Assembly: GCA_029261795.1 (NCBI GenBank)
Contig: JAJDAP010000034.1
Coordinates: forward strand, 9,858 to 73,857
Source of the DNA: Deltaproteobacteria bacterium
Lineage (GTDB): Bacteria > Myxococcota_A > UBA9160 > UBA6930
Direction of reading: 5' to 3'
Length of the DNA: 64,000 nt
A model generated the notes under the pieces. That model made no database searches. It was not told the DNA's origin and was given only the letters and a program-made list of their open reading frames with translations. The position numbers and the translations under genes are program-made. Below, in pieces: positions 1 to 23,681 of the stretch (positions within the stretch are counted from its first letter, which is position 1; each line of letters begins with the position of its first letter).

Positions 1-67
1 GTGTAACGAGCGCAAGAGCCCCGAGGAGCCCGGCACACCAGGCCCATCGCTCAAATCGATTCGACAA
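1..67 (-). CDS. Partial CDS (5' end only, runs off the left edge); signal-peptide-like N-terminus MSNRFERWAWCAGLLGALALVT
   Basis: TTG at 67-65 preceded by GGAGGGG RBS (72-78 on minus) and by an ECF-type motif at 101-126; hydrophobic N-terminus; not in ORF track because truncated. Confidence 0.5.
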   Translation of the reverse strand, partial: MSNRFERWAWCAGLLGALALVT

Positions 68-100
68 GTCACCCCTCCATCGCAGTCCCTAGCAATGGTT

Positions 101-126
101 TACGGAAGAGTGGCGGGATCGTGACC
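101..126 (-). promoter_or_regulatory. Putative ECF promoter copy 1: GGTCAC-N16-CGTA
   Basis: Minus strand reads GGTCAC gatcccgccactcttc CGTA; -10 ends 34 nt before the TTG at 67. Confidence 0.75.
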
Positions 127-161
127 GCTACCGAGACGACTCGGCACGAACTGAGCCGGGA

Positions 162-878
162 TCAGGTTCCGGAGAAAAACGCCCGAGCCTGGATGGCGCT
201 GGTGACACCCAGGTAGCCGCCGGCAGCCGTCCCGGCGATCCAAGCAGCGAAGACCCAGACTGAGTTGTCTACCGATTGGAGAGCTACGCCGGGCAACAGC
301 AGGAGGAACATCGCCGCTGCGGGAATCATCGGCCGGGCCAACTGACCGCGCCCGACGCCCAGCACCAAAAATACGGAAGCCGCGCCGATCAAGAGCGTCG
401 CGACCAGACCGAAGCAGAACGCACTCGCGGGTAGGCCGGCGACGTCGAAGATCCGCCTCCCCAGATCGGTTGCGGTCCACCAGTTCAGAAAGTGCTGGTC
501 CGCGCACGCGGCCCCGCATATTCCAGCAATCCCGAGACCCAGGAGTGCCACAGAGGCGGAATGCGAGAGGGGTAGCGAAGGCGTACGCACTCCGAGAAAC
601 GCAATCGCGAAGCTCACGACCAGCAATCCGGCCCATACCATACTGAAGACCGTGACATGCCACGGTGGGTGGTGATCAAAGGGGTGTCCCGAGAGCAGCA
701 GCGTGACGCCGATCGCACCAACGACGCCCGCGACTCCTGCCGCAACCAGCAGCCGAGCCGTGCGACCGCCCCGGAGTTCGACATCGCTCCTGATCGCCGA
801 GAGGATGCCCGAACGGACACCGTCTCGAACCTCGGACCGGCGGCTGTCCTTCTCCATTCGCGAACCTACCTCGGTCAC
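162..878 (-). CDS. Multi-pass membrane protein, putative anti-sigma factor / metal sensor
   Basis: Directly downstream of the ECF sigma gene; about 6-7 hydrophobic segments; motifs HPFDHHPPWH and CGAACADQH; GTG start. Confidence 0.65.
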   Translation of the reverse strand: MTEVGSRMEKDSRRSEVRDGVRSGILSAIRSDVELRGGRTARLLVAAGVAGVVGAIGVTLLLSGHPFDHHPPWHVTVFSMVWAGLLVVSFAIAFLGVRTPSLPLSHSASVALLGLGIAGICGAACADQHFLNWWTATDLGRRIFDVAGLPASAFCFGLVATLLIGAASVFLVLGVGRGQLARPMIPAAAMFLLLLPGVALQSVDNSVWVFAAWIAGTAAGGYLGVTSAIQARAFFSGT

Positions 879-899
879 GGCCCGGTCTGAACGGGACGG

Positions 900-1481
900 C
901 TATCCAACCGGGAGCCCGAAGGCTCCATCTGGTCCCACCGACGCACGCAGCCTTCGGATCGCACGGGAGGCTGTCTTCTTGACGGCATCGACGGACTTGC
1001 CAAGATGGTTTGCAACCTCCGCGTATCCGACTCCATCGACCTTGGCGGCGAGCAGAACGTAACGCTCTTCGTTCGAGAGGAATTGCAGCAGTTGCATCGA
1101 CTGTTCGCGATCCGCCACTTCCCCCTCAGCGTTGCGTTGCTCAGCCCTCGGCTCACGGTCCTCGATCGAGAACTCATGGTGGCGAAAGGCACGTCGGTGG
1201 TCATCGACGAGTAGCCGGTTCGCGATCTGGAAGAACCAGGGGGTGAAAGGCCGATCGGAGTCATATCGATCCCGCGCCCGATGGATGCGCAGGAACAACT
1301 CCTGGTAGAGATCCTCGGCGCGCTCGGAAGATCCGGTTCGTTTGAGGAAGAAGGCGTAGGCCCGTGGTTCGTAGCGCCGAAACAGTTCGTCGAACGCGTC
1401 GCCGTCGCCGTCGCCGTAGTGCGCCATGAGCGTTTCATCTGACAGATCCCTCTGCTGCGCGAATCGTGCTGTATCTGACAT
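900..1481 (-). CDS. ECF (sigma-70 group 4) RNA polymerase sigma factor
   Basis: DETLMAHY..DAFDELFRRY, AEDLYQELFLRI, PFTPWFFQIANRLLVD (sigma2), YAEVANHLGKSVDAVKKTASRA (sigma4 HTH); start moved to ATG 1481 with AGGAGG RBS. Confidence 0.93.
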   Translation of the reverse strand: MSDTARFAQQRDLSDETLMAHYGDGDGDAFDELFRRYEPRAYAFFLKRTGSSERAEDLYQELFLRIHRARDRYDSDRPFTPWFFQIANRLLVDDHRRAFRHHEFSIEDREPRAEQRNAEGEVADREQSMQLLQFLSNEERYVLLAAKVDGVGYAEVANHLGKSVDAVKKTASRAIRRLRASVGPDGAFGLPVG

Positions 1482-1643
1482 ACGACCTCCTCTCGCGAAC
1501 GGTGACGAGAAAACGGCGATGCACATTGCGTGCCGCTGTGTGTAGCCCGCGCCCGCGAGCGCAGGGCGTTCGTAGGTGCGTCAGTTTGGCATAAGCCAAT
1601 GACCGGCGTGGCTTTCTGACCCATTCCTCGCCGCGGGGACGCA

Positions 1644-2870
1644 ATGGTGCAGGTTCTGCGCTCGCGGAACGGTAAGGTGGCGATCGACCGCCCTGGAGAC
1701 CCCGAATTGCAGCTGCACTGGCTCCTCGCCGTCGTCCTCATCACCGCCAAGCTGTTTGGAGTGGCGGCCCGCCGTTGGGGATTGCCTGCCGTCGTCGGAG
1801 AGATTCTGGCCGGCGTCGTGCTAGGCCCTTCTCTACTCGGCCTGCTCGAGATCCCGGGGTCCGATGGGAACGGCGATGCCCTGTCGGGGCTCGCACAGAT
1901 CGGGCTCTGCGTGCTGCTCTTCCGCGTGGGGCTCGAGACCGACCTCGACCAGGTCCGGCGTGTGGCAGGGTCGGCGGTGATCCTCGCAGGGGTCGGAATG
2001 CTGCTGCCCTTTGTGCTGGGGGTGTTGGGGGCTTCAGCCTTCGGGGTCGCCCTGCTTCCCGCTCTCTTCATCGGCGCAACCCTTACTGCCACGAGTATCG
2101 GGGTGACCGCCTCGGTGCTCGAAGAACTCCGAGCTGGTGGCACCCGGGCCGCCGCGCTGATCCTGGCAGCGGCCGTCATCGACGACGTGCTCGGTCTCGT
2201 TCTACTGGCCGCACTGATCGGGGTTGGCGCGGCACCGGGCAGCGCCGGGATCGAGGTCGGGATCGCGGTCGCCCAGGCCGTGGGGTTCCTGACGGCAGCG
2301 CTCTGGCTGGGGCCGCCCTTGGCCCGAGCGTCGGACCGTCTTGCCCGCTGGACTCGTTCGCAGAGCATCATCCTTCCGCTCGTCTTCGGCGCTCTTCTGC
2401 TGACGGCGGCCGCAGCCAAGGCCGCAGGGATGGAGATGATCATCGGCGCCTACGCCGCCGGGCTCGCGCTGGTCCGGCACCCGGAGCGCGCATGGCTCGA
2501 GACGAAGCTCGAAGCCGTGATCGAACTATTCACGCCGATCTTCTTCGTACTCGTCGGAAGCTCGATCGCCCTGGAGACGTTCGCGATGGGAACGCCTGCC
2601 GGTCGCACCACTGTGGGATTGGCCGCGCTTCTCTTCAGTGCCGCCATCCTCGGGAAGCTGCTGGCACCGCTCGCGATTCGCAACCTCGACGTTCCAGTCT
2701 TGGCGGTCGGCAGCGCCCTCGTGCCGCGAGGTGAGGTCGGGCTCATCTTTGCACAGGTGGGCCTGAGCGAAGGTGTCCTGAGGCCCGACCTGTTCTCCGC
2801 ACTGACGTTGGTGATCACTGCCACCACACTGGTCGGCCCCGTGATGCTCCGCAGGCTCTGGCGCTCCTGA
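1644..2870 (+). CDS. Cation:proton antiporter, CPA2/NapA-KefB-like family
   Basis: About 12 TM segments; GEILAGVVLGPS, LLFRVGLETD, TATSIG, AAVIDDVLG, LVPRGEVGLI motifs. Confidence 0.9.
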   Translation: MVQVLRSRNGKVAIDRPGDPELQLHWLLAVVLITAKLFGVAARRWGLPAVVGEILAGVVLGPSLLGLLEIPGSDGNGDALSGLAQIGLCVLLFRVGLETDLDQVRRVAGSAVILAGVGMLLPFVLGVLGASAFGVALLPALFIGATLTATSIGVTASVLEELRAGGTRAAALILAAAVIDDVLGLVLLAALIGVGAAPGSAGIEVGIAVAQAVGFLTAALWLGPPLARASDRLARWTRSQSIILPLVFGALLLTAAAAKAAGMEMIIGAYAAGLALVRHPERAWLETKLEAVIELFTPIFFVLVGSSIALETFAMGTPAGRTTVGLAALLFSAAILGKLLAPLAIRNLDVPVLAVGSALVPRGEVGLIFAQVGLSEGVLRPDLFSALTLVITATTLVGPVMLRRLWRS

Positions 2871-2900
2871 GCGACGCGCCCCGAGACCCGATCGCGATCG

Positions 2901-2927
2901 GGTCACCTCCGAGCGCGCGAGGCCGTA
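2901..2927 (+). promoter_or_regulatory. Putative ECF promoter copy 2: GGTCAC-N17-CGTA
   Basis: GGTCAC ctccgagcgcgcgaggc CGTA; 72 nt before ATG 2999; -35 overlaps the right arm of a perfect 20-bp palindrome (2885-2904). Confidence 0.72.
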
Positions 2928-2998
2928 CTACATGGCAGGCGCGAAGGTGGCGGTCGCACGGAGCGTATCGGGCACAAGCGCAAGCAAGGAGATGACAG

Positions 2999-3349
2999 AT
3001 GAGAACCGTTATCGCACTAGCCCTGTTCGTGGGGGCCGTGGCCCTGGTGCCGGCCTTCGCACTCGCGGGGAGCGACTCCCGGTCGGTCGAGCAGTTCGCA
3101 GTCGAGAAGGCGGAGACGCCGGAGGAGCACGCGGACCTGGAACGGCACTACCGCTCGTTGGCGGAAGAAGCGCGCGGACACGTACGCCACCACGAGAAGA
3201 TGGGAAGCTCCTACCGAATAGGCAAGCTGCACAACCGGCAGCGTATGGAGCGCCACTGCAAGAAAATCGCCGAGAGCTACGCCAGCACGGCCAAGGAATA
3301 CGAGGCACTCGCCGACCTCCACAAGGACGAGGCGAGGCAGAGCGAGTAA
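2999..3349 (+). CDS. Small secreted His-rich helical protein, putative periplasmic metal-binding protein
   Basis: Sec signal (..VPAFA); 8 His, 2 Met and 1 Cys in the mature part (EHADLERHY, GHVRHHEKM, MERHC, LHKD); AAGGAG RBS. Confidence 0.7.
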   Translation: MRTVIALALFVGAVALVPAFALAGSDSRSVEQFAVEKAETPEEHADLERHYRSLAEEARGHVRHHEKMGSSYRIGKLHNRQRMERHCKKIAESYASTAKEYEALADLHKDEARQSE

Positions 3350-5189: not shown

Positions 5190-5226
5190 GTTCTCCTCGG
5201 TCTACCGGTCTCTTGTGGCCCTGTAC

Positions 5227-5252
5227 TACGGGAGCGGCGTCGCCCTGTGACT
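5227..5252 (-). promoter_or_regulatory. Putative ECF promoter copy 3: AGTCAC-N16-CGTA
   Basis: Minus strand AGTCAC agggcgacgccgctcc CGTA; 38 nt before ATG 5189. Confidence 0.75.
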
Positions 5253-5327
5253 TCGAATGTCGTGGGGGAGCGTCCGCGGCGTCGCCTCTGCAGGCCGGTC
5301 GGCGGGTGCCGGCTGCACTTTTTCTCC

Positions 5328-5354
5328 AGTCACCAGATCGACCCGGATGCCGTA
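5328..5354 (+). promoter_or_regulatory. Putative ECF promoter copy 4 (mtrAB): AGTCAC-N17-CGTA
   Basis: AGTCAC cagatcgacccggatgc CGTA; 63 nt before ATG 5417. Confidence 0.78.
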
Positions 5355-5416
5355 GTACGCGTTGCAGCGGAGTTTGCAGTCCCGTGGGACGCAGCGGCGA
5401 GAAGGGCGATGTCACG

Positions 5417-6373
5417 ATGAACAGCTTGACAGCCTCCAAGCGAACGAGGATTGCCACACTCTGCGTAGGGTCGTTCGTAGCGGCCCTCGTGGCCTGCGTC
5501 AGCGTGGTCTGGACCCCGCTGGGGCCCCGCCGCACGGCCGACGTCGCAAACGCGGAACCCATCGGTGCTCCTGTCTGCGCGGCCTGTCACGAGCAGGTGC
5601 ATGGACAAGAGTCTCCGGCTCCCTTCCACGCGGACTGCGAGAGCTGCCATGGACCGGGAAGCCTTCACGCCGCGAGTGGCGACACTCAGCTCATCCGCTT
5701 CCCGGGTAACGACGACTGTCTCGCGTGTCACACGGAGGGCGTGGCCGAGCACATGGAGTGGGGGACCAGCGAGCACGCCCGCGCTGGGTTGTACTGCTCC
5801 GACTGCCACAATCCCCACAGCGGTGAGGAGAGCGAGCTCCGGCCCTTCGAGCAGGTCGCCCTCCCACGCATCGATCTCGAGTCCGCCCTCTGCGTCGAGT
5901 GCCACCGGGACGTGGCGTCGCGCCTGAAGTTTCCTTCGCACCATCCCGTGGCCGAGGGGGCGCTGGGATGCACCAGCTGCCACAACGCTCACGAAGACCG
6001 GCGCGTCTCGTTCGGTGATCGCAACGAGCGTTGTGCGACCTGCCACCAGGACTACATGGGCCCCTGGGTATTCGAGCACCCGCCGGTCGTCGAGGACTGC
6101 ATGACCTGCCATAACCCTCACGGCGCCGTTACCGAGAATCTCCTCGAGACGATCCAGCCCGTGATCTGTCTCTCCTGTCACTCCCTCCCGGACAGCCGAC
6201 ATCACACCACGGGCTCGTCCGGAATCCCCGGCCAATCGACCATCAGTGGCGACTACCCGACAGCGCCCGGGACGACCATCGGAACGCAGGAGGCCAGAGC
6301 CTTCTTGCGCCGGTGCACCGACTGCCATAGCGCGGTCCACGGATCCTATACCGATGAACACCTACGTCACTAG
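5417..6373 (+). CDS. mtrA: Decaheme c-type cytochrome, MtrA/DmsE/MtoA/PioA family
   Basis: Exactly 10 CXXCH (CAACH, CESCH, CLACH, CSDCH, CVECH, CTSCH, CATCH, CMTCH, CLSCH, CTDCH); GPWVFEHPPV..C..CHNPHG family signature; N-terminal signal with possible LVAC lipobox; start moved to ATG 5417. Confidence 0.93.
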   Translation: MNSLTASKRTRIATLCVGSFVAALVACVSVVWTPLGPRRTADVANAEPIGAPVCAACHEQVHGQESPAPFHADCESCHGPGSLHAASGDTQLIRFPGNDDCLACHTEGVAEHMEWGTSEHARAGLYCSDCHNPHSGEESELRPFEQVALPRIDLESALCVECHRDVASRLKFPSHHPVAEGALGCTSCHNAHEDRRVSFGDRNERCATCHQDYMGPWVFEHPPVVEDCMTCHNPHGAVTENLLETIQPVICLSCHSLPDSRHHTTGSSGIPGQSTISGDYPTAPGTTIGTQEARAFLRRCTDCHSAVHGSYTDEHLRH

Positions 6374-8483
6374 AGCCGCCATCCTCGCCGGCTACGTCCT
6401 CATTGCGACGCCGTTGCTGGCGGACGATCTGACACCGCGAGGCGATGTCACCGTGGGCATCCAGCTCTACCGCCCGGAGGGCCCATTCGAGCGCGACGAC
6501 ACGGCCTCGTTCTTCGACAAGTACCGGTACCTCAAGAACAAGGGCACCGATCTGCCGTTCTTCGTCGATCTGACGCACCTCGACCTGGGCCTCGTCCGCG
6601 ACGACGGAACCTACGCAGTTCGCTTGCAGCGCTGGAGCCCCGGGTGGTCGAACGATCGTGCCGAGCTGGAGGGGGGCTGGCCGGGAGTGTCGCTGCTGGC
6701 CGACTATCGTCGCTATCGGAGCGACGAGCTCCGTTTGTTCTCGAGTCCGACCGGCGTCGGCAGCGCATTCGCCAGCGTGTTCAACGACGACACGTCCGCG
6801 GACGACCGCTTCTTCGTGCGACGAACGAGTGCGGGGCTGGCGGTTCGCGTGCGTCCCGCAGGCTTCGACCACCCATCCGACCTCCTGAAGGAACTGGAGT
6901 TCTCCTCGCGATACGAGCACCGGAGCGGCCAGCGCCAGGATCGCTACGTGCTGAGCGGTTCCCAGGAGCGCGGTGCCGGGGGTCTCAATACGTCCCGCTT
7001 CCGGGCGTTCACCCGGGACATCGACCAGGACGTCACCAGCATCGGGACGCGGATCGTTTCGACTCCCTGGGATCTGCTCACCAGCGCTATCGAGTTGGAG
7101 TTCGAGAGTTTTCGCGAGCGCGCTCCCACTACCACGCTCGGCGCGGGAGAGCCGGGGAGTATCTCGGCCTTCGATCCGGTCGGTATTCTCGCCGGATTCC
7201 AGGATCCCCTGAAGTCACTGCGCGCTTTCAACTACGTCCCTGACACGGATCGCCTGTACGCGTCGCTGCGCGTCCGGCCCCATCTGGGACCGGTTCAATT
7301 CCACGGCGGCGCGTCTGTCACGCGCTTGAAGCAGGCGGGGAGTCGCGCGCCGGAGCAGATCGCCTTTGGCCTCGATGACAATTCGGTCACGACCTATTCG
7401 ATCTACGGCGCTGGCGAGTTTCCGCTGACCGATCAGTTGGCCCTCAACGGGTACGCGAAGTTCTGGAAGCGCCGCAACGCACTCGATTCGGGCAACATCC
7501 TATTCTCCAAGGATCAGACGGACGCCTTCCTCGAGCAGCTGCGCGAGGTGAAGAACGGCCTGGAGCTTCGCGCCACACCGATGGCGGGAACGGACCTGAC
7601 GCTGGGATATCGGGGACGCTTCGTCCGGCGCGACCTCGAGTTCCAGAAGAGCACCCGTTCCGTGGCGCCCGAGTTCACGATCATCGGTGAGGACACCACG
7701 ATACACACCGGCTACCTGGGCTGGAACCTTCGTCTGGTACGGAGCCTCCAACTCTCCGGGGAGGCGGGTTACGAGAACGGCACCGAAATCGGGTACCCGC
7801 GAGAGCTGGAGCGCGCGTACTACGCGAAGGCCCGAGTCTCCTACGTGCTGCCCCGCCCCGTCCCGATGACGCTCACGGCGTCCGGCCGCTTCCTCGACGG
7901 CGAGAGCGACGAGATCGAGCTACTGGGCGAATCAGCGGGAGCGCGGCGCAAGCAGTTCGAGGTGAGACGCTGGAACTACGACGTGACCTTGACAGCGGTT
8001 CCCAAGGAATCGCTCGTGGTCTTCGGCTCGTTCACCCAGCACCGCAACGAGGAACGGTTCGCGCACCTGCGCTCCAATATCCGCCGGTTCGAGGGACCGG
8101 TGCCGGCGAGCATCCTGAACTTCTTCATCGATTCGGTCCCGCAGTACGAAAGCGACGTACTGAGCGTCACCCTTGGTGGCAGCTACCAGATCAGCAAGAC
8201 ACTCGAGGCATCCCTGGCGACCACGGTCACCAGAACCCGCGTCGACATCGCGGGCGGAGGTGGAGCCGCCCGCGCCCTCGACGAAGTCAATCAGATCCGG
8301 AACCAGATCACGAGCATCGAGTGCGGCCTGTCCTATCGAGCCACCCGGCAGGTTCGGCTAGACCTGGGATACCGGTTCGACCGATTCCACGACGATGTCC
8401 GACTGGAGGCACTCGACTTCAGCACGCGCGAGCACACACTCTCGGTCAGCGTGACGATGGACCTCGATGCGCTGACCCCCTGA
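6354..8483 (+). CDS. mtrB: Outer-membrane beta-barrel porin, MtrB/PioB family
   Basis: About 709 aa, Sec signal, alternating amphipathic beta-strand pattern throughout, overlaps the 3' end of mtrA; family call rests mainly on size and synteny. Confidence 0.82.
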   Translation: MNTYVTRAAILAGYVLIATPLLADDLTPRGDVTVGIQLYRPEGPFERDDTASFFDKYRYLKNKGTDLPFFVDLTHLDLGLVRDDGTYAVRLQRWSPGWSNDRAELEGGWPGVSLLADYRRYRSDELRLFSSPTGVGSAFASVFNDDTSADDRFFVRRTSAGLAVRVRPAGFDHPSDLLKELEFSSRYEHRSGQRQDRYVLSGSQERGAGGLNTSRFRAFTRDIDQDVTSIGTRIVSTPWDLLTSAIELEFESFRERAPTTTLGAGEPGSISAFDPVGILAGFQDPLKSLRAFNYVPDTDRLYASLRVRPHLGPVQFHGGASVTRLKQAGSRAPEQIAFGLDDNSVTTYSIYGAGEFPLTDQLALNGYAKFWKRRNALDSGNILFSKDQTDAFLEQLREVKNGLELRATPMAGTDLTLGYRGRFVRRDLEFQKSTRSVAPEFTIIGEDTTIHTGYLGWNLRLVRSLQLSGEAGYENGTEIGYPRELERAYYAKARVSYVLPRPVPMTLTASGRFLDGESDEIELLGESAGARRKQFEVRRWNYDVTLTAVPKESLVVFGSFTQHRNEERFAHLRSNIRRFEGPVPASILNFFIDSVPQYESDVLSVTLGGSYQISKTLEASLATTVTRTRVDIAGGGGAARALDEVNQIRNQITSIECGLSYRATRQVRLDLGYRFDRFHDDVRLEALDFSTREHTLSVSVTMDLDALTP

Positions 8484-8513
8484 ACGCCGCTCGCGCGAGT
8501 CCGTAGCGGCGGG

Positions 8514-10040
8514 TCACGATCCTCCATCGGGACGCTTCGCGGGAAGCACCTCGTAGACGATCGCGGTACAGAAACTCAGCATGATGCCCGCGATGAAGAT
8601 CAACGGGCTGTAGGGAAGCACGGGGTCCTGGTAGACCTCGGCGCCCACCCCCGCGGAGCCGGCGAAACCGACAATGGCGAGTGTCAGCCCGACCGCGAGC
8701 GTCGCCCCCGCGATCCACGTTCGGCGCGTCTCCGACTCAGGGGCCTCGTCTGGCGCCCCGTCTTCAGGATGCGCGAGCGGCACGATCGGAAAGATCTTGG
8801 CGAAGAGCAGGAACGCCAGGCTCGCCAACCCGAACAGGCCCGCGACCACACTGAGCTCCACCCAGTTCGGAACGTAGTGGCCCTTCGCGTAGGGGAGCAG
8901 CATCCCGTCCGTCTGCGATGGGACGACGATCAGCAAGCGTTTCAGGATCGCACCGACGTTGATCACGGCTGCTGCTGCCACGTACCAGCCGATCCGCGTC
9001 GTCCGGCTCAGGAACCGCCAGAGCAGCAGACCGAACCCAAGCGCCAGGGTGCCTACCGTGGACCAGAACATCCAGGCGTACGAGCCGGACACCAGCGAGT
9101 GCTCGAGCGCGCGTTCGGCCGTGGGTGCCGCGTAGCCCGCGGTCAGCTCCTCCACGCCCATCAGGTAGAGATAGGCGAGCGTCAGGACACACTGGAAGTT
9201 CCCCAGGGTCCGGAACGCGGCCGCCTCGATCACGTCCTCCAGATGCATGAGCTTTCGGGCGGAGGCTGCAATGAGGGTCAGCATGGCCAGGCCCGAGGCC
9301 CCTGCGAGAACCACGAAGCTCGGCGCCTGGAGCGCGCTGAACCAGCCCGGCCGACCCGCCACGATCCCGAACACGAAGCCGAGCGTCGAATGGGCAACGA
9401 CCAGGAGCGGGAGGATGAGCAGGGAGAGCCAGAAACTCACCACGCGGTGCCGCGCCGCCTCGGCATGCGTGCCGCGGAACCCGCTTCCCCACAGACGGTG
9501 GAGCCACCTCCAACGCGAGGGAACGCTGGCGCACGTCGCCGCACACGCGCGGCCCGCGAGGAAGAAGTAGACGAGACTGGCGAACAGGTAGCCGGCGACG
9601 ACCAGCGTGAACGTTCCGAAGAAGGGTGATGACGGCCTCGCGTAGAGCGGGAGGTACAGCAGGCCATGCAACGGCCGGCCGAGATCGGCCATGATGGTCA
9701 TCCCGCCCATCAACAGCGCAATGATTGTGAGGAACTCGGCCATCCGCGTGAGTGGCCGGAGTTCCGGTAGTGGAAACAGCCGTACCAGCGCCGCCGCGCT
9801 GATCCCGGCAAAACTCACGCCCACGAAGTAGATGTCGAATGCGACGTAGAGCCCCCATGCCGCGCCGCCCTGGCCGATCGTGCGAAGACCGGTCGCGACC
9901 AGTCCCTCGCGAAGCTGAACGGAATAGGCCCACGCGCCCCACAGCGCCAGCGATGCGGAAACCCCGACGGCGGCCAACCAGTATCGGCCCGGGCGATCGA
10001 GCCCGAGGGCGTCCCTGCGTTCCTGGGTAGTTTGCTCCAC
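8514..10040 (-). CDS. NrfD/PsrC-family quinone-interacting membrane subunit (QrcD/ActC-like)
   Basis: WGLYVAFDIYFVG, MADLGRP..., SSPFF, HSTLGFVFG...RPGWFS, Y.PNWVEL motifs; about 10 TM plus 2 extra C-terminal TM. Confidence 0.9.
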   Translation of the reverse strand: MEQTTQERRDALGLDRPGRYWLAAVGVSASLALWGAWAYSVQLREGLVATGLRTIGQGGAAWGLYVAFDIYFVGVSFAGISAAALVRLFPLPELRPLTRMAEFLTIIALLMGGMTIMADLGRPLHGLLYLPLYARPSSPFFGTFTLVVAGYLFASLVYFFLAGRACAATCASVPSRWRWLHRLWGSGFRGTHAEAARHRVVSFWLSLLILPLLVVAHSTLGFVFGIVAGRPGWFSALQAPSFVVLAGASGLAMLTLIAASARKLMHLEDVIEAAAFRTLGNFQCVLTLAYLYLMGVEELTAGYAAPTAERALEHSLVSGSYAWMFWSTVGTLALGFGLLLWRFLSRTTRIGWYVAAAAVINVGAILKRLLIVVPSQTDGMLLPYAKGHYVPNWVELSVVAGLFGLASLAFLLFAKIFPIVPLAHPEDGAPDEAPESETRRTWIAGATLAVGLTLAIVGFAGSAGVGAEVYQDPVLPYSPLIFIAGIMLSFCTAIVYEVLPAKRPDGGS

Positions 10041-10042
10041 GG

Positions 10043-10903
10043 TCAGTGGCGCCTCTCACGTCGAAGATGGAAGACCTTGGGCTTCGTGCCGAGGTGCTCG
10101 AGCAGCTGGTCGGCGCGCGGGCTCGTCGCCGCGAGAGCCACCCGGCTCCCCGGATCGTTCAGGTCGCCGAAGACGATGGCCTCGGCGGGGCACGACTCGG
10201 CACAAGCCGGCAGCGACTGGAAGTCGGTATCGGACAGGCTGACCCCGTCGACCCTGGCGCTTTCTGTCACCGAACGGATCCGGTGGGAGCAGAACGTGCA
10301 CTTCTCCACGACGCCGGCGGGACGCGTGGCAACGTCGGGGTTCAAGGTGTTGAGGTGGCTGGTCGGCCACTCGGGGGCATCCCAGTTGAAGAAGCGGACG
10401 CCGTAGGGGCACGCGACCTCACAGAAGCGGCAGCCAATGCAGCGGTCGTAGATCTGGGCGACGATTCCGTCGCCAGTTTGATAGGTGGCGCCAACCGGGC
10501 AAACCGGAACACAAGGCGGGTCTTCGCAATGCAAACAGGGCAGCGGAAGCATTTCTGGAGCTGATTCGCTCCCCTCGGAACGGTCTTCGAGCGGCAACAG
10601 GTTCATCCACAGGATGTCGGTTCCGTCGCTCTCTTCGGCGCTGCCGGTGGCCGGTACGTTGTTTTCCGTGCGGCACGCCACCACACAGGCTCCGCAACCC
10701 GTACAACGATCGAGATCGATCGCCATGCCCCATTTTCGCTTCTCGTCATCCGTCGCGACGGTCCTCTCCCGCTCGGGCGAACCCGCCAGCGCGCGTCGCG
10801 GGGAGGACATCAGGAACGCCCATAGTGCGCTCGCTGCGACGAGCGCCGAAACCACGAAGCGATGGGCGAACGCCCGGCGCGTCAGATTGCGGGGGATCAT
10901 CAT
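10043..10903 (-). CDS. 4Fe-4S dicluster electron-transfer subunit (NrfC/QrcC/DsrO-like)
   Basis: Four cluster motifs CTGCGACVVAC, CLHCEDPPCVPVCP, CIGCRFCEVACP, CTFC..CAESCP; Tat-like TRRAF. Confidence 0.93.
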   Translation of the reverse strand: MMIPRNLTRRAFAHRFVVSALVAASALWAFLMSSPRRALAGSPERERTVATDDEKRKWGMAIDLDRCTGCGACVVACRTENNVPATGSAEESDGTDILWMNLLPLEDRSEGSESAPEMLPLPCLHCEDPPCVPVCPVGATYQTGDGIVAQIYDRCIGCRFCEVACPYGVRFFNWDAPEWPTSHLNTLNPDVATRPAGVVEKCTFCSHRIRSVTESARVDGVSLSDTDFQSLPACAESCPAEAIVFGDLNDPGSRVALAATSPRADQLLEHLGTKPKVFHLRRERRH

Positions 10904-10907
10904 TTCC

Positions 10908-13277
10908 CTACGCCCTCCGGATCCGCACGTTTACACCCTGCAGCACCGGCGTCCCGACGAACGGATCGAGTTCGTGTGGGATCAACTCCATGACGTTGGC
11001 CCCCCTGCCAAGTGCGAAGCGGCCCCATGCCGTGTGGCCGCCGCCCTTCGCGATCCGTACGACATCGGGGTGCACGCCCGCCCGAACGGCCACCGGCAGC
11101 TCGATCGATCCCAGGGGGCTCTCGATCCGCACCCGATCGCCCGCCGCAACGTGGGCCTGATCGGCGGTGTCGGGATGGAGGAATGCGGTGGTCTGCCAGG
11201 CGCGGTCACCAGGCTCGGTCACGAGTTCCTGCAGCACGGGAAGGTTGGCGCCGCTGCCTTCGGCGTACGAGCCGGGTTGGTACGGCTCGAGCAGCAACGG
11301 GAAGTCCGGGCTCGAGTGCTTCGCGGGATCGGCGAAGTGCGGCAGGCACGCAAGCTCGCGATCGATCCCGACTCCGGATTCGCGAAGCCAGCTTTCGCCG
11401 AAGCCCTGCCAGAGTCGGAGGGAGAAGAACTCGAACCTGCCGGAGGGGGTGCGAATCGACTCCTGGCGAGGGGAACCAGGGTCCTCCCAGAACCCGCGGC
11501 GGAACAATGCGCGCAGGAAGTGCGGCACGCTTCCTTCGATGATCGACCCGCGCTGCGCCTCATGGATCCCGCTGAGTCGTTCAAAGAGTGCAGCACGGAA
11601 GTCAGGCCATGGAAACGCTTCAGCGACCTTCCCACCCATCTGGCGCGCCAGTTCCAACACGACATCTGCACTCGGCCGGGTGTCGTGGAGCGGTTCCACC
11701 AGCGGTTGGCGAACGCCCTGCACCGGAAAACCGACGCTAGGCGCGGAGGCAGCGTCCTCCCAACGTTCGAGATAGCTGTGATCCGGAAGCACGAGATCCG
11801 CGATCTCGGCAGTGGTCTCGTCCAGGAACGGCGAGAAGCTCACGACGAACGGGACGCGTGCGAGCGCGCGACGCCAGCGCGCTGGGTCCATTCCGGAATA
11901 GCAGGGGTTCGAGTAGTAGAGGAACAACGTGTCGATGGAGCCGGCTGGTTGCGCGAGCAGGGCGTCCGCAAGGTCGTCGATGCCGCGCGATCCCAGCGGC
12001 CGGGACGACGTGGCGATTCCCGGTCGCTGCAGACTCGCCTGCGCGAGGTCGTCCAACTCCAGCGAAGGCCAATCGGCCGTGGGCGGGTCGCTCTGGACAA
12101 GGAGTCCACCAGGACGATCAATGGCACCGAGGAGCGCATTCAGTGCATGTACCGCCATGGCGGTGTGGAGTGCACCGCGCTCGCGGGTTCCGACCCCCCG
12201 AGACACCACGAAGGACGGCCCATTGGCGGCGAGTTCGGCCGCCAAACGCTCGACCGTCTCCGTCGGAATCCGGCAGCACTCCGCGACGCGCTCAGGGGAG
12301 TAGTCGCGCACCAGGAGGTCCCGGAAGCCCCTATGCGTACGGCCCTGGTCATCGGTCCAGTTTTCGAACCCGAAGGCGCGCCCGGCAATGAAGTCGCGGT
12401 CGTAGAGACGGTCGCGTACCAGCACGTGCGCGAGGCCCATGGCGAGCGCACCATACGAGCCCGGGGCAATCCGGACCCACTCGTCAGCATTCGCCGCGGT
12501 GCGAGAGTACGACGGCTCTACCTGGACGATCGTGCCTCGCTCGGCTCCGCGGTGAGTGCGGTAGTGCACCGTCGAGCGCGCTTGATGCACGGACTGGCAG
12601 GACTCCTCGAGAAGAGGAGCTCCCAGGCTCAGGACGTAACGGGCTCGTGGCCAGTCATACGCTGGCGTCTCGCGGACGCCTTGCATGGCGTAGAGGGCGC
12701 TGGCCGTTGCGCCGTCCTTGCGCAGGGACACATCCAGGAATGTCGGTGTTCCGAAACTTCGGGCGAAGCGCTCCCAGAGGTCGCGGATCATGCCACGCTC
12801 GCGGCCACAGACGATTGCGAGCCTGTCTGGACGCCCCCTCGAACGCAGGGCTCCGAGGCGAGTGGCCAGACCCGAGAGCGCCTCGTCCCACGAGACCTCC
12901 GCAAGCGCTCCGCCTTGTCGTCGCATCGGTCCGCGGATCCGATCGGGGTCGTACAGAACGTACGGGGAGGCCAACCCGCGCGGCCCGATGCCACCAGGAT
13001 GGACTGGGTTGCCCGGCTGGCCGCGAACGGAAACCACCCTGCCTTCGACCACTCGCGCGGAGATGCCACAACCGGCCGGACACTGCGCACACGCGGTCGC
13101 AATCGTCTTCTCTTCATGCAGGTTCCATCGCTCTGCGCCGGGCACCGACGGTTTCTCGAGCGAGTAGGGATCCTGGCTCGAGCACGCTGCGAGCGGGGCT
13201 CCGGCGACGACACCGGCTCCCGCCCTCAGGAAATTCCGGCGTCCGGCATCGTGCGGGCGTCCCTTCGGCCACGTCAT
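10908..13277 (-). CDS. Molybdopterin oxidoreductase-family (DMSOR/CISM) large subunit, QrcB/ActB-like, probably non-catalytic
   Basis: Tat GRRNFL; CAQCPAGC; YDPDRIRGPM; EPSYSRTAANADEW..I.PG..GALA; ADLVLPDHSYLERW; HPDTA C-terminal domain; start ATG 13277 overlaps the upstream stop. Confidence 0.88.
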   Translation of the reverse strand: MTWPKGRPHDAGRRNFLRAGAGVVAGAPLAACSSQDPYSLEKPSVPGAERWNLHEEKTIATACAQCPAGCGISARVVEGRVVSVRGQPGNPVHPGGIGPRGLASPYVLYDPDRIRGPMRRQGGALAEVSWDEALSGLATRLGALRSRGRPDRLAIVCGRERGMIRDLWERFARSFGTPTFLDVSLRKDGATASALYAMQGVRETPAYDWPRARYVLSLGAPLLEESCQSVHQARSTVHYRTHRGAERGTIVQVEPSYSRTAANADEWVRIAPGSYGALAMGLAHVLVRDRLYDRDFIAGRAFGFENWTDDQGRTHRGFRDLLVRDYSPERVAECCRIPTETVERLAAELAANGPSFVVSRGVGTRERGALHTAMAVHALNALLGAIDRPGGLLVQSDPPTADWPSLELDDLAQASLQRPGIATSSRPLGSRGIDDLADALLAQPAGSIDTLFLYYSNPCYSGMDPARWRRALARVPFVVSFSPFLDETTAEIADLVLPDHSYLERWEDAASAPSVGFPVQGVRQPLVEPLHDTRPSADVVLELARQMGGKVAEAFPWPDFRAALFERLSGIHEAQRGSIIEGSVPHFLRALFRRGFWEDPGSPRQESIRTPSGRFEFFSLRLWQGFGESWLRESGVGIDRELACLPHFADPAKHSSPDFPLLLEPYQPGSYAEGSGANLPVLQELVTEPGDRAWQTTAFLHPDTADQAHVAAGDRVRIESPLGSIELPVAVRAGVHPDVVRIAKGGGHTAWGRFALGRGANVMELIPHELDPFVGTPVLQGVNVRIRRA

Positions 13278-13795
13278 TGGTGGCACGCCAGGCATTCGAG
13301 CGTGGCTCCGTATTGCGTGTGACACGACATGCAGTCCTCCATTGACTGCATCGACGCATCCGGTCGGCTGTAGGGCCGGGGCATCCGGGCGACGTCCACA
13401 TGGCACTCACCACAGGACATCTCGGCGAGCGACACATGCACTCGGTGGGAGAAATAGACGTGGCCGGGGTAGCGATTCACCTGGACGAACGGGATCTGCT
13501 CGCCGCGTGCGGCGTACCCGCTCACCTTGGCCAGCTCCGGCCGATCGGACGGCCCAGAATGGCATTGTGCGCAGACCCGGATGGAAGGCAGGCCCGCGTG
13601 GCGGTTGGTCCCCGCGCTCCCGTGGCACGCTGCGCACTCTAGCTGTACGTCGCCGACGTGGAGTGAATGATCGAAGGCGACGGGTTGCACGACCGCGGCT
13701 GGTCCCTCGCACGCTCGAGCAACTGCAAGGCCCACAACGAGAAAGGTTGCCGCAGACAGACCCGCGATCAGTGTCGGGAGGCGGATTCGCTCCAT
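13274..13795 (-). CDS. Membrane-anchored pentaheme cytochrome c (QrcA/ActA-like)
   Basis: 5 CXXCH (CAACH, CAQCH, CGECH, CMSCH, CLACH); FDHSLH and FSHRVH distal His motifs; N-terminal TM; GGAGG RBS (TTG 13798 is an alternative start). Confidence 0.9.
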   Translation of the reverse strand: MERIRLPTLIAGLSAATFLVVGLAVARACEGPAAVVQPVAFDHSLHVGDVQLECAACHGSAGTNRHAGLPSIRVCAQCHSGPSDRPELAKVSGYAARGEQIPFVQVNRYPGHVYFSHRVHVSLAEMSCGECHVDVARMPRPYSRPDASMQSMEDCMSCHTQYGATLECLACHQ

Positions 13796-13833
13796 CAACG
13801 ATCACCTCCCGGCTCGATCACGAACGATGAACC

Positions 13834-14235
13834 TCAGTCGGAGCCCGGCGAGGACTCGTCGGGCGTCTTCCCGAGCTCGGAGAGATAGGCCACGATCGAG
13901 TCGAGTTCTGCCTCCGTTCCCGTGAAGCCCATGGGATGCTTCCTTCCGTCCAGATCCACCTCCTTGCGAAGGAACGCAACGATCCACTCGGATTGATGCC
14001 GGTCGCCCACGAGGGAGAGGTCGGGGGGACCATTCGACGCGTCCTCCTCTCCGAACGGATCGTCTGCAACAGCAGGCGACGAGCCGAGCTTTTCGACCCC
14101 ATCCGTGGCAATGCCGTGGCAGAGGTTGCAGCGCTGCTGCAGGAACTTGTCCCTACCCTCCTCCGCGGCGGCAGGGGCCGCCGTGAGCAGAGCCGCGAAG
14201 GCAACCCACAACCCGCATGCAATGAGCTTCCACAT
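13834..14235 (-). CDS. Periplasmic monoheme cytochrome c
   Basis: Sec signal ..PAAA; CNLCH; PDLSLVG; HPMGF candidate Met ligand; GGAGG RBS before ATG 14235. Confidence 0.85.
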   Translation of the reverse strand: MWKLIACGLWVAFAALLTAAPAAAEEGRDKFLQQRCNLCHGIATDGVEKLGSSPAVADDPFGEEDASNGPPDLSLVGDRHQSEWIVAFLRKEVDLDGRKHPMGFTGTEAELDSIVAYLSELGKTPDESSPGSD

Positions 14236-14279
14236 CTTCCCTCCCCGAGCGAATCGCTCCATGGAGATCCTGCCGTGTA

Positions 14280-14306
14280 TACGGCACGAGCGTGCCGGAA
14301 GTGACT
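14280..14306 (-). promoter_or_regulatory. Putative ECF promoter copy 5 (cytochrome/Qrc-like operon): AGTCAC-N17-CGTA
   Basis: Minus strand AGTCAC ttccggcacgctcgtgc CGTA; 45 nt before ATG 14235. Confidence 0.78.
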
Positions 14307-14314
14307 CCGATAGG

Positions 14315-14341
14315 AGTCACCAGATTTCCCTGGCCCCCGTA
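14315..14341 (+). promoter_or_regulatory. Putative ECF promoter copy 6 (gdhA): AGTCAC-N17-CGTA
   Basis: AGTCAC cagatttccctggcccc CGTA; 20 nt before TTG 14361; shares AGTCACCAGAT with copy 4. Confidence 0.78.
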
Positions 14342-17039: not shown

Positions 17040-17296
17040 GGTTCCTGGCCTGGCTGCGAGGCGTCACCCCCAGTGGCGTGCGATCCGGGACCCTTGTGCC
17101 CGCGGTGCATGAACACGTGCATCAGTGGACAGATCGCGAGAATCATCCATGGCAGATACGCGATCACGTGTGCCCGGTGCTCGGCCCACAGGAAGTAGGC
17201 TGCGGCAGCCGCAAACACACCAAAAGCGATGCGTCTGGAGAGCGCGCCGTCCGCGCCGGGCTCCTGGGTCACAGGGCTGGACCGCAGCTCATCCAT
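17036..17296 (-). CDS. DUF2933-family small membrane protein
   Basis: AEHRAH...LPWMILAICPLMHVFMHRGH signature; start moved to ATG 17296. Confidence 0.85.
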   Translation of the reverse strand: MDELRSSPVTQEPGADGALSRRIAFGVFAAAAAYFLWAEHRAHVIAYLPWMILAICPLMHVFMHRGHKGPGSHATGGDASQPGQEP

Positions 17297-17334
17297 CGGG
17301 TCCCCGGAAATCTTTGTTGCCCATCGTCCGAGAC

Positions 17335-17361
17335 TACGGCGCACGCCCCCGGGTGGTGACC
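17335..17361 (-). promoter_or_regulatory. Putative ECF promoter copy 7: GGTCAC-N17-CGTA
   Basis: Minus strand GGTCAC cacccgggggcgtgcgc CGTA; 39 nt before ATG 17296. Confidence 0.78.
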
Positions 17362-17365
17362 GATC

Positions 17366-17391
17366 GGTCACGATTCCGGGTCTTGAACGTA
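17366..17391 (+). promoter_or_regulatory. Putative ECF promoter copy 8 (cus operon): GGTCAC-N16-CGTA
   Basis: GGTCAC gattccgggtcttgaa CGTA; 46 nt before GTG 17437; shares GGTCACGAT.CCG with copy 1. Confidence 0.78.
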
Positions 17392-17436
17392 GAACGCACT
17401 GCGCTTGCAAAGCAGCTCGCCCGATCGAGGAGTCAA

Positions 17437-17709
17437 GTGGCACAATTCATTGGGGATATCGCTTTCCTGTTCGAACTGGGCCTCGTTGCGGTGGGGATCG
17501 TGCTGATTCATTTTGGACGCGAGCGCTCGGCCGGCATGCTCAGGACCGCGGGGTGGATCCTCGTCATAGGTGCCTTGGGCACCGCGATCTGCACTAGTGT
17601 CTTCTGGTTCCGGTACCTGCAGGCGGGCGACTTCGACCGGGCCGAGGCGGCTCCGTTCGTGGAGTTTGACCACGACCTCGATTCCCCCGGCATCGCGCTG
17701 CTCGGATGA
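17437..17709 (+). CDS. Small 2-TM hypothetical protein heading the cus operon
   Basis: GTG start with AGGAG RBS; two hydrophobic helices and an acidic C-tail; 90 aa. Confidence 0.6.
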   Translation: MAQFIGDIAFLFELGLVAVGIVLIHFGRERSAGMLRTAGWILVIGALGTAICTSVFWFRYLQAGDFDRAEAAPFVEFDHDLDSPGIALLG

Positions 17710-17757
17710 CGATGTGTGGTGCTCGCACGCGGCGACACAACACCAAGAGGCGGCGAG

Positions 17758-19068
17758 ATGAAGACAGACACGAGCAATGCGACCGGAAGGAAGCCGCTCC
17801 TGACCCTGGCGTTGCTGGGTGGATGCCTGTGCCTGATTGGAGCGGCAGATCCGCCGTCCGAAGCACCGCCGGACCCTTTGCCACTCTCCTGGTGCTTGGA
17901 GCGTGGCGAAGTCGCGAACCCTGATCTGGAGATTGCGCAAACGATGGCGGAGGCCGCCGACGCGCGCGTGTACCCGGCCGGCGCGCTCCCTGACCCTCGC
18001 TTCCGCTACGAACTCAGCAATGTGCCCACGGGAGATCTCGACCTCGACTCAACGGCTCTTTCTGGTCAGCAACTCGGCCTGAACCAACGCGTTCCCTTCC
18101 CCGGACTCCTCGGGAGCCAACGAAGGGCGGCGCGATCCGCCGCCAACGCCTCGAAGGAGACAGCCGGCGACGAGTCCCGGCGAATCGCCGCCGCGGTCGA
18201 GCAGGCTTGGGTCGAACTCGGGTTCGCCCAACGCGCCCTCGAAGTCACGATCGAGAACATCGACCTGCTACGCCAGCTCGCACAGATAGCAGAGGCCAAA
18301 TACCGCGTCGGAGTTGGGCTCCAGCAGGATGTGATCCGTGCCCAGGTTGCGATTACCGAACTCCTGGACGAACGCCTTCGGCGGCGGGCTTCGATCCGCT
18401 CGTCCGAGGCGCGCCTCAGTGGCTTGCTCGACCTTGGGCCCGAAACGCGGCTTCCACGAACCGCTTCTCTTCGCGAGGCGACTCCACTCCCTGAGCTGGC
18501 GTCTCTTCTCGCGGAGCTGGAATCCACGAGTCCGCGCCTGCGCGCTGCGGCCCAACGCGTCGATGAGGCAGAGCATCGGAAGCGGGTGGCGCAGCTCGAG
18601 GGCTACCCCGACTTCGACCTCGGTCTTGGCTACCGCGTGCGGCGCAAGGTCCCCGGAGATCCAGTCGGTGGAGACGATTTCCTCGGCGCGAGCGTCACGA
18701 TTCGGTTGCCGGTCGACCGGCAGAAATGGAACTCGCAGGTTGCCGAACGGGACGCTCTGGTGCGGAGCAGCCGCGCAGGGTACCGACGGTTGCGCGCTGC
18801 GTTGCGCGACGTGCTTCGAAGTCGCCACGCAGACCTCGACCGCGCGGACCAGGAGATCGCACTTCTCGAGGGAGGGCTCGTGCCCCAGGCACGTCAATCC
18901 CTGGATTCGAGTCGTTCTGGCTATGAGGTCGACAAGGTGGACTTCCTGAGTCTGATCGACAGCCAGGTCAGGTTGCTCAACGCGCAGCTCCGCCTGGAGC
19001 GTGCGATAGCCGATCGCCGCGCGGCGTTCGCCGGGGTAGAGGCCACAATGGGAGTGAACCTGCGATGA
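17758..19068 (+). CDS. cusC: TolC-family outer membrane factor (CusC-like)
   Basis: Signal peptide; NPDL, ALPDP, YRVGVGLQQDV, GYEVDKVDFLSLIDSQ OMF repeats; first of a CBA trio. Confidence 0.88.
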   Translation: MKTDTSNATGRKPLLTLALLGGCLCLIGAADPPSEAPPDPLPLSWCLERGEVANPDLEIAQTMAEAADARVYPAGALPDPRFRYELSNVPTGDLDLDSTALSGQQLGLNQRVPFPGLLGSQRRAARSAANASKETAGDESRRIAAAVEQAWVELGFAQRALEVTIENIDLLRQLAQIAEAKYRVGVGLQQDVIRAQVAITELLDERLRRRASIRSSEARLSGLLDLGPETRLPRTASLREATPLPELASLLAELESTSPRLRAAAQRVDEAEHRKRVAQLEGYPDFDLGLGYRVRRKVPGDPVGGDDFLGASVTIRLPVDRQKWNSQVAERDALVRSSRAGYRRLRAALRDVLRSRHADLDRADQEIALLEGGLVPQARQSLDSSRSGYEVDKVDFLSLIDSQVRLLNAQLRLERAIADRRAAFAGVEATMGVNLR

Positions 19069-20549: not shown

Positions 20550-20552
20550 CGC

Positions 20553-23500: not shown

Positions 23501-23681
23501 GGGCCTCCTTCCGATCATGTGGGGATCCGGGACCGGCTCCGAGACGATGCGTCGCATCGCCGCACCCATGGTGGGGGGACTCCTGTCGGCAACGGTGCTG
23601 ACGCTGGTCGTGATCCCGGTCCTCTTCTCGCTGGTGCGCGGCTCGAAGCTTCCCGACGCGGAGACCGCGCAGCCCGACTGA
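20553..23681 (+). CDS. cusA: Heavy-metal RND permease CusA/SilA (Cu+/Ag+)
   Basis: LDAIPDLSDVQV, AMVDAAVVMVEN, Met-triad contexts LLYMP / PLSMIET / RIDML, R.RP.MMT, RIAAPMVGG. Confidence 0.95.
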   Translation: MLRRIIEGSARNPLLVGLATVALILWGGYATYNMPLDAIPDLSDVQVIVFTEFPGQAPQVVEDQVTYPLTTSMLAVPFAKTVRGYSFFGFSFVYVIFEDGTDLYWARSRVLEYLNFVAGRLPPGVTPSLGPDATGVGWVYEYALIDPTGKHDLAELRSLQDWYLRYELQTVSGVAEVASIGGFVRQYQVEVEPNALAAYGISLSAVRHAIQRSNNDVGGRLVEMAESEFMVRGRGYIKSIDDLEQIAIGTDGRGTPVLLRDVANIHTGPELRRGLTELNGEGEVAAGIVVMRFGENALEVIQNVKAKLETLKAGLPPGVEIVEVYDRADLIERAVDNLQEKLLEEVAIVALVCVLFLFHLRSALVAVLTLPLGILVSFTVMYHQGLNANIMSLGGIAIAIGAMVDAAVVMVENAHKHLERDEGKKPRSEILIEAAAEVGPALFFSLLIITVSFLPVFSLQAQEGRLFTPLAFTKTYAMAGAAFLAITIVPLLMIWFIRGNIVAEHRNPLNRFLLWLYAPVIRFVLRYKVSVLLGALALLVVTVLPLRQLGSEFMPPLNEGDLLYMPTTLPGISITKAREILQQTDRMIRQFPEVHHVFGKIGRAETATDPAPLSMIETTIMLKPPDEWRPGMTIQKLISELDKAVRLPGVTNAWTMPIKTRIDMLSTGIKTPVGIKVAGPDLEILQDLGEQIEAILQNEPGTLSVFAERVVGGNYLDFEIDRREIARYGLTVGDVQDVIQSAIGGRNVTFTVEGLERYPVNLRYSRELRDNLTMLRRVLVPTPTGAQVPLSQLATLEIKKGPPSIKSENARLNAWIYVDLDGVDVGTWVNRAKVTLEQELTLPAGYSIAWSGQYEYMERAAERLQIVVPITLGIIFLLLYLNFRRLSDALIVMLTLPFGLIGGVWLLWSLDYDLSVAVGVGFIALAGVSAELGVILLVFLEEAVSRFEREGRLRTKADLLAAVREGAGLRVRPIMMTVTSTIAGLLPIMWGSGTGSETMRRIAAPMVGGLLSATVLTLVVIPVLFSLVRGSKLPDAETAQPD

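Follow-up and report, generated by a model that had tools for sequence, protein, structure and literature searches.

A candidate six-helix anti-sigma factor with a conserved His/Cys cluster and a putative metal-linked regulon in an uncultured class of Myxococcota

Results

Genes and features of the locus

Near its left edge, the window (the whole stretch of 64,000 nucleotides analysed here) carries a reverse-strand gene for a membrane protein of unnamed family, preceded in the same direction by the gene of an ECF sigma factor (Table 1). The open reading frame at 162..878(-) is real and begins 21 nt past the stop codon of the sigma gene. The earlier note had let the protein start at 878; we found the ATG at 857 to be the likelier start, because it is preceded by GAGGTAGG, gives the 231-aa form held in the databases (P0001), and is the point at which the homologs begin, so that the GTG at 878 is probably an upstream alternative. 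The placement of the gene after an ECF gene was confirmed in the window and proved to be general, since 33 of the 37 related loci, whose neighbourhoods were counted by tblastn of defined query proteins, have a homologous sigma gene immediately before the membrane-protein gene in the same orientation; tables of called genes agree. The sigma gene encodes the Pfam Sigma70_r2 and r4_2 domains and matches the sigma70-ECF superfamily model; a longer 208-aa reading frame from 1526 is probably over-extended. Among the sequencing runs searched, the window sequence turned up in four, all of them DNA runs of a single biofilm metagenome study, and in no RNA run.

Table 1 Positions in the window of the candidate gene, its sequence motifs, the sigma gene, the His-rich protein and the promoter-like motif copies
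Feature	Position	Strand	Remark
Anti-sigma candidate, coding sequence	162..857	-	231 aa; six TM helices, N-in/C-in
Alternative GTG start	878	-	Gives 238 aa
N-terminal cytoplasmic Arg-rich helix, residues 1-35	753..857	-	Consensus REGVRsGIl..DvElRGGRTAR; putative sigma-binding segment
Periplasmic loop 1, GHPFDHHPPWH (H58, H62, H63, H67)	657..689	-	DNA reading, topology, conservation
Periplasmic end of TM3, CGAACADQH (C114, C118, H122)	492..518	-	DNA reading, conservation
Start of TM4, FCFG (C148)	408..419	-	DNA reading, conservation
Cognate ECF sigma factor	900..1481	-	193 aa; ATG at 1481-1479
Motif GTCAC-N17-CGTA before sigma gene	1481..1506	-	Putative autoregulation
Motif GTCAC-N16-CGTA just after anti-sigma stop	101..125	-	Heads operon beyond the left edge of the window
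Motif copy	2902..2927	+	Heads small His-rich periplasmic protein and TerB gene
Secreted His-rich helical-hairpin protein	2999..3349	+	116 aa; recurrent partner in other genomes
Motif copy	5227..5251	-	Heads 239-aa protein (function unassigned) and K+ channel-like gene
Motif copy	5329..5354	+	Heads multihaem cytochrome and 745-aa protein
Motif copy	14280..14305	-	Heads cytochrome c, molybdopterin-family subunit, 4Fe-4S subunit, NrfD
Motif copy, back-to-back with 14280..14305	14316..14341	+	Heads Glu/Leu/Phe/Val dehydrogenase gene
Motif copy	17335..17360	-	Heads small membrane protein, ICMT-family protein, methyltransferase
Motif copy	17367..17391	+	Heads CusCBA-like pump: OEP, CusB-like MFP with HMBD domain, RND pump (17716-23681)

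Membrane topology and the conserved His/Cys cluster

Hydropathy and an AlphaFold2 model of moderate quality (pLDDT 74) both gave six transmembrane helices; of the six or seven proposed earlier, six is therefore retained and seven is not. The predicted cytoplasmic side has 13 lysines and arginines, nine of them within the first 35 residues and four in the C-terminal tail and the two loops on that side, whereas the periplasmic side has 2; by this asymmetry, the N-terminus lies inside, and the three motifs all lie at the periplasmic face of the membrane. The motifs themselves (HPFDHHPPWH, CGAACADQH and FCFG), as pointed out in the earlier note, can be read directly from the DNA. The N-terminal helix runs continuously into TM1 in the AlphaFold2 model and belongs to the best-conserved parts of the protein, with R11, G17, D25, R29, G30, R32 and T33 invariant.

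Among 154 full-length homologs, which share about 55-68% pairwise identity with the window's protein, H58 and H67 are conserved at 100%, and H62, H63, C114, C118, H122 and C148 at 99%. It had been argued that the proposed ligands should be abandoned if the His and Cys residues varied among homologs, and they do not; judged from the alignment, their conservation exceeds what chance would give. The more distant members, at 21-56% identity, lack the His loop, C114 and H122 but keep C118-P119, W127, P189 and some glycines. C118-P119 is the only Cys motif common to the wider family (the window's protein has Ala at position 119), and since it alone persists family-wide, the sensor residue of the wider family would be the cysteine at the periplasmic end of TM3. 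On the same comparison, the His4/Cys3 cluster would thus be an elaboration of the close subfamily. Structure and domain searches added no relatives: scans of the protein against Pfam and NCBIfam gave no match even at E<=10, NrsF/DUF1109 included, Foldseek of the AlphaFold2 model against the PDB returned nothing significant (best E 0.57), and the family profile had no match among PDB sequences.

Extent and distribution of the family

There are hundreds of homologs of about 230 aa; every one is unnamed or "hypothetical", and a precomputed Pfam domain is listed for none. The family is nevertheless narrow, as a full HMMER scan of 1.8 billion cluster representatives gave 62 matches; it grew no further in a word-index search with the distant alignment A2, whose matches were all close members. 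Species-representative genomes yielded 32 matches, all in metagenome-assembled genomes labelled Myxococcota, "Deltaproteobacteria" or, in six cases, Spirochaetales/Spirochaetaceae. The loci of several genomes with the latter labels (L025, L028, L032, L041, L043) look like Myxococcota loci, which could mean mislabelling or a transfer of the island. When 301 Myxococcota genomes were searched with the family profile, 18 carried the family, all of them of the window's own class, no credible match was found outside that class, and the distribution was patchy even within the window's taxonomic family. In these searches, the family appears confined to one uncultured class of Myxococcota. In one genome (G171:C28:51435-52873), two copies of the gene stand head to head, and the one with an in-frame TGA may be a decaying duplicate.

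Remote homology to NrsF

Sigma F of Caulobacter crescentus, the partner of the six-helix anti-sigma factor NrsF, belongs to the ECF16 group. Researchers have found that changing the two periplasmic cysteines of Caulobacter NrsF releases sigma F, that sigma F moves to the soluble fraction in the NrsF cysteine mutants and under dichromate, and that the system responds to chromium and cadmium (PMC3511200). The earlier note had felt reminded of NrsF/DUF1109 by the topology of the window's protein. The likeness stood as remote homology in controlled profile-profile comparison, and it failed as recognition by the Pfam NrsF model, because PF06532 (gathering score 26.8 bits) did not match the window's protein at E<=10, and a six-frame search of the window's own genome with the same model found only a separate locus below the cut-off. 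That locus, on contig C30 at about 6693-7903, is a second pair of sigma factor and six-TM protein, in which the sigma factor falls inside the clade of NrsF partners and the membrane protein scores 23.6 bits, just under the cut-off.

An hhalign comparison of the family profile A2 with a profile of 39 Myxococcota NrsF sequences gave a probability of 94.7% (E 5.8e-8); the 205 aligned columns are collinear and reach from the N-terminal helix to TM6. Reversed profiles reached 1-2% and ten block-shuffled profiles at most 34%; a narrower NrsF profile of 12 sequences reached only 16.7%. We consider this good evidence at the sequence level for remote homology to NrsF, and not for membership of PF06532. 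In the alignment, the first conserved Cys of NrsF falls two columns from C148, and the position of the second coincides with, or adjoins, the Ser of an invariant LQS motif. In the sigma factor tree, the sigma factors of the family form a clade of their own (100/100), apart from the clade of NrsF partners (94/92); the possibility that the window's sigma factor is a member of the latter was rejected, as the tree gives a separate clade without a sister placement. NrsF proper occurs in 58 of the 301 Myxococcota genomes and coexists with the window's family in several of them. On these comparisons, the family is probably a new and very divergent NrsF-like anti-sigma subfamily, and recognizing it would extend the NrsF/DUF1109 superfamily to hundreds of proteins that are now unannotated or "hypothetical".

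The pairing with a sigma factor persists in distant members of the family, whose sigma factors are 36-42% identical to that of the window. Three distant homologs (P0167, P0173, P0178) carry a zf-HC2 domain of the canonical anti-sigma type (PF13490, best E 4e-9) before the same transmembrane body; at least one of these fused proteins follows directly after an ECF sigma gene 36% identical to the window's, and another distant member follows a sigma gene with 42% identity. This retained pairing indicates that sigma factor and membrane protein travel as a module. The N-terminal helix of the window's protein aligns with the helix after the zf-HC2 domain in these relatives, and also with the N-terminal helix of NrsF.

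A shared promoter-like motif and the putative regulon

Counting pairs of -35 and -10 words upstream of the sigma genes of 33 loci yielded the motif GTCAC...CGTA, which occurs 93 times in the 758 kb searched over the 37 loci and has a spacer of 16 or 17 nt in 90 of the 93 copies, though 14-18 nt were allowed. In 24 loci it occupies a fixed place just before the sigma start, in 17 there is a copy facing the other way, 100-270 nt farther upstream, and in four it follows right after the anti-sigma stop. A search of window positions 1-3000 for a sigma-70-type promoter consensus found none. Of the 44 exact matches in the window's genome, 10 are clustered in 24 kb of contig C34 (1.6% of the genome), and nine of these ten are intergenic and correctly oriented, while most other matches in the genome lie inside coding sequence. 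Matches outside C34 were not counted as regulon members, being mostly within coding sequence, where they form a background with a 3-nt period.

In the island of the window, the motif marks nine transcription units (Table 1). The operon behind the copy that follows the anti-sigma stop can be traced in the continuation of the contig and comprises a 447-aa protein, cytochrome c, unknowns, OEP-MFP-RND and a cupredoxin. Some members of the putative regulon of this genome have no obvious specificity for copper, namely the cytochromes, a Qrc-like complex and a dehydrogenase. At 5213-14262, the multihaem cytochrome and the 745-aa protein face the cytochrome c/molybdopterin/4Fe-4S/NrfD complex, and both stand behind the same motif. 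Two small membrane ORFs of 86 and 90 aa, at about 17040-17300(-) and 17430-17710(+), lie directly behind the motif pair at 17360(-)/17367(+); in one of them the listed stretch ends in CPLMH, a possible metal-binding motif.

The gene of the small His-rich protein, a recurrent partner of the system, lies within 6 kb in 22 of the 37 related loci (the copy in the window's own genome lies outside the stretch searched). Partner proteins are about 115-125 aa long and end in ...HCKKIA...EYEALAKLHEEEAKKAK. The gene is usually divergent from the sigma gene, behind the opposite-strand copy of the motif, and stands upstream of the sigma gene in L008, L029-L031, L037, L039, L041, L043, L045, L048 and L049; several loci have two or more matches. 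The AlphaFold2 model of the partner is a helical hairpin (pLDDT 81), and Foldseek against the solved structures of the PDB gave no significant match (best E 0.32). As only generic helical hairpins were returned, the idea that the partner is CnrX-like was dropped. The partner could be a periplasmic metal buffer or a co-sensor, and in layout it resembles MrpX, which stands beside SigF/NrsF in Azospira.

Copper and heavy-metal genes are frequent within 6 kb of the related genes: a CopA-type ATPase occurs in 11 of 37 loci, CsoR in 10 and a heavy-metal RND system in 12, and their union covers 23. At about 10 loci, the genes that come next downstream, in the same orientation, are CsoR/CopA or Haem_bd-CsoR-CopA.

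Discussion

A probable anti-sigma factor for the adjoining sigma factor

The gene very probably encodes the anti-sigma factor of the ECF sigma factor directly upstream of it, as judged from gene order, domain architecture and profile homology. In the resting state, the Arg-rich N-terminal helix, running into TM1, would hold the sigma factor at the inner membrane, and by analogy with NrsF, a shift of the helix bundle would set the sigma factor free. The released sigma factor would then transcribe from the GTCAC-N16/17-CGTA promoters, to go by the conservation of this promoter-like motif, and its targets would be its own operon, the divergent gene of the small His-rich periplasmic protein, and CsoR-CopA or Cus/Czc-type efflux operons, joined in the window's genome by the cytochrome-rich modules. 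To our knowledge, a single-helix N-terminal segment such as this one is shorter than any structurally characterised anti-sigma domain, which counts against the anti-sigma reading. One might accordingly suppose that the protein is no anti-sigma factor and is instead a membrane protein, co-transcribed with the sigma gene, whose own task is metal handling (as transporter, reductase or membrane chaperone), with the sigma factor controlled in another way; the N-terminal cytoplasmic part of only about 35 residues would suit this, as would the Pfam scan, in which the window's protein shows no anti-sigma domain. Nevertheless, we regard this explanation as highly improbable, because adjacency to a sigma gene is near-universal, distant homologs bear the zf-HC2 anti-sigma domain on the same body, the full-length homology to the NrsF profile survives its controls, and the N-terminal helix is highly conserved, as expected of a protein-protein interface.

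Nature of the signal

The joint claim that the protein is an anti-sigma factor and that its signal is a metal appears likely from the genomic evidence, and the CopA, CsoR and RND neighbours point to copper in particular, towards which we lean somewhat. Cu(I), Cu(II) or another thiophilic metal would bind the His/Cys cluster, or copper-driven oxidation would modify the thiols, a picture drawn from genomic association. Of the Cu(I)/Ag(I) or heme/redox ligands suggested earlier for the His and Cys residues, the link to metal has gained from the copper-homeostasis neighbours and the shared promoter motif, while heme has found no specific support. That the cluster would ligate haem or another redox cofactor and report the state of a periplasmic or extracellular electron-transfer chain encoded in the regulon seems very unlikely to us. 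In favour of this, the cluster has several histidines close to the membrane surface, the anti-sigma gene of L007, L032 and L033 is followed by a Haem_bd (PF14376) gene, and motif copies of the window's genome head several cytochrome c genes, a multihaem module and a molybdopterin/FeS/NrfD complex; however, the window's protein has no CxxCH motif and no paired histidines deep within its transmembrane helices, no significant structural match to any haem protein was obtained, and cytochrome neighbours occur in only 3-4 of 37 loci, against 23 of 37 with copper or heavy-metal genes.

A more serious competitor, though still an unlikely one, is that the anti-sigma factor senses oxidants such as hypochlorite, reactive oxygen species or singlet oxygen by thiol oxidation or disulfides among C114, C118 and C148, with copper at most an indirect signal. 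Related systems give this some weight: the NrsF system of Azospira responds to chlorite and hypochlorite, and its divergent SigF-dependent operon encodes a small periplasmic scavenger peptide (PMC4436054), a layout that is mirrored here by the divergent small periplasmic protein; the DUF1109-linked ECF system of Bradyrhizobium is reported to be inducible by reactive oxygen species (PMC3420878); CarR responds to singlet oxygen as well as to copper (PMC9304148); and the residue kept throughout the wider family is a cysteine. Against it stand the recurrent neighbours, which are CsoR, CopA, CusB with HMBD, RND pumps and cupredoxin, whereas the neighbours scanned against Pfam included no match to methionine sulfoxide reductase, catalase or peroxiredoxin. 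The four invariant histidines in a Pro-rich loop, moreover, resemble metal ligands more than redox-active residues.

Returning to copper, a more specific reading is a direct transmembrane copper sensor, in which the CP-type Cys at the end of TM3, the His4 loop and C114/C148 would bind Cu(I) at the membrane surface, the sigma factor would be released mechanically via TM1 without proteolysis, and the divergent His-rich hairpin protein would buffer periplasmic copper and reset the sensor. Taken with all its parts, this reading is tentative and rather doubtful. If it were true, the system would amount to a copper regulon that is self-contained and horizontally mobile and that turns on outer-membrane cytochrome modules as well, and six-TM anti-sigma factors with an unexplained copper response, CarR among them, would gain a concrete mechanism. 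Only a few metal-responsive ECF systems are understood, and the combination of invariant candidate ligands, a clear promoter motif and a compact copper-efflux regulon makes copper sensing by a six-TM protein directly testable here.

Comparison with known systems

Like NrsF (of Caulobacter crescentus and Azospira, and OsrA of Bradyrhizobium), the window's protein is encoded by the second gene of a sigma/anti-sigma operon, has six TM helices with the N-terminus inside and a short N-terminal cytoplasmic segment (25 aa in NrsF, 35 in the window's protein), and bears conserved periplasm-facing cysteines in a context of heavy-metal or oxidant stress. Of the conserved NrsF cysteines (C131 and C181 in Caulobacter), the second corresponds in the window's family to a Ser or the residue beside it, and C114 and C118 are conserved instead. 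The window's family further differs from NrsF in adding the His4 loop, the CxxxC(P)DQH motif and C148, and in having copper-homeostasis genes as neighbours.

CarR, the anti-sigma factor of CarQ in Myxococcus xanthus, comes from the same phylum and is set beside the window's family by its published description only. Researchers have reported that it shares the six-TM topology of DUF1109 anti-sigma factors at low sequence similarity to them, and that copper inactivates it by an unexplained mechanism (PMC9304148; PMC6851896). Unlike the window's family, however, CarR controls carotenogenesis, responds also to singlet oxygen plus plasmalogens, and has been reported only in Cystobacterineae. The CnrY-CnrX-CnrH system of Cupriavidus metallidurans is a metal-responsive ECF system (nickel and cobalt) that controls an RND efflux operon; its anti-sigma factor CnrY works through a short cytoplasmic peptide at the N-terminus, with a helical periplasmic protein also involved (PMC6851896). 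The window's system is like it in the metal-linked ECF sigma factor, the RND efflux operon, the short N-terminal cytoplasmic segment and the helical periplasmic partner, but whereas CnrY is a single-pass protein with the separate sensor CnrX, the candidate ligands here are on the six-TM anti-sigma factor itself. Zinc-binding anti-sigma factors of the ZAS type (zf-HC2, PF13490) come closest in P0167, P0173 and P0178, in which the HxxxCxxC domain is fused before the same TM body; unlike them, the window's protein and its close subfamily have no N-terminal HxxxCxxC domain and keep only the helix after it.

The promoters can be compared in the same way. The sigma F motif of Caulobacter is GTAACC-N16-CGAA (PMC3511200), and in Myxococcota the NrsF loci show GTAAC(C)-N16/17-CGTA, often with two copies standing back to back. 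Architecture and spacing are thus the same in the NrsF systems and in the window's family, and the -35 element differs, being GTCAC in the latter and GTAAC in NrsF loci. This one-base difference would fit the coexistence of both systems without cross-talk, and a change so small could insulate two related systems in one genome.

Two features of promoter arrangement may be added. The divergent pairs of the window at 14280-14341 and 17335-17391 stand back to back, so that the two -35 elements form an inverted repeat, and inverted-repeat divergent pairs also occur, with the GTAAC variant, in NrsF-type loci of Myxococcota (L017, L066, L070, L076, L079). At the sigma genes, CGTA overlaps the start codon (CGTATG) in 22 of the 24 loci with the fixed motif, and a GAGG ribosome-binding site lies inside the spacer. 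From a transcript starting 6-8 nt after CGTA, only a conserved internal Met (D-E-x-L-M; giving 175 aa here) would be usable, and this suggests that the sigma gene has two transcripts and perhaps two sigma isoforms.
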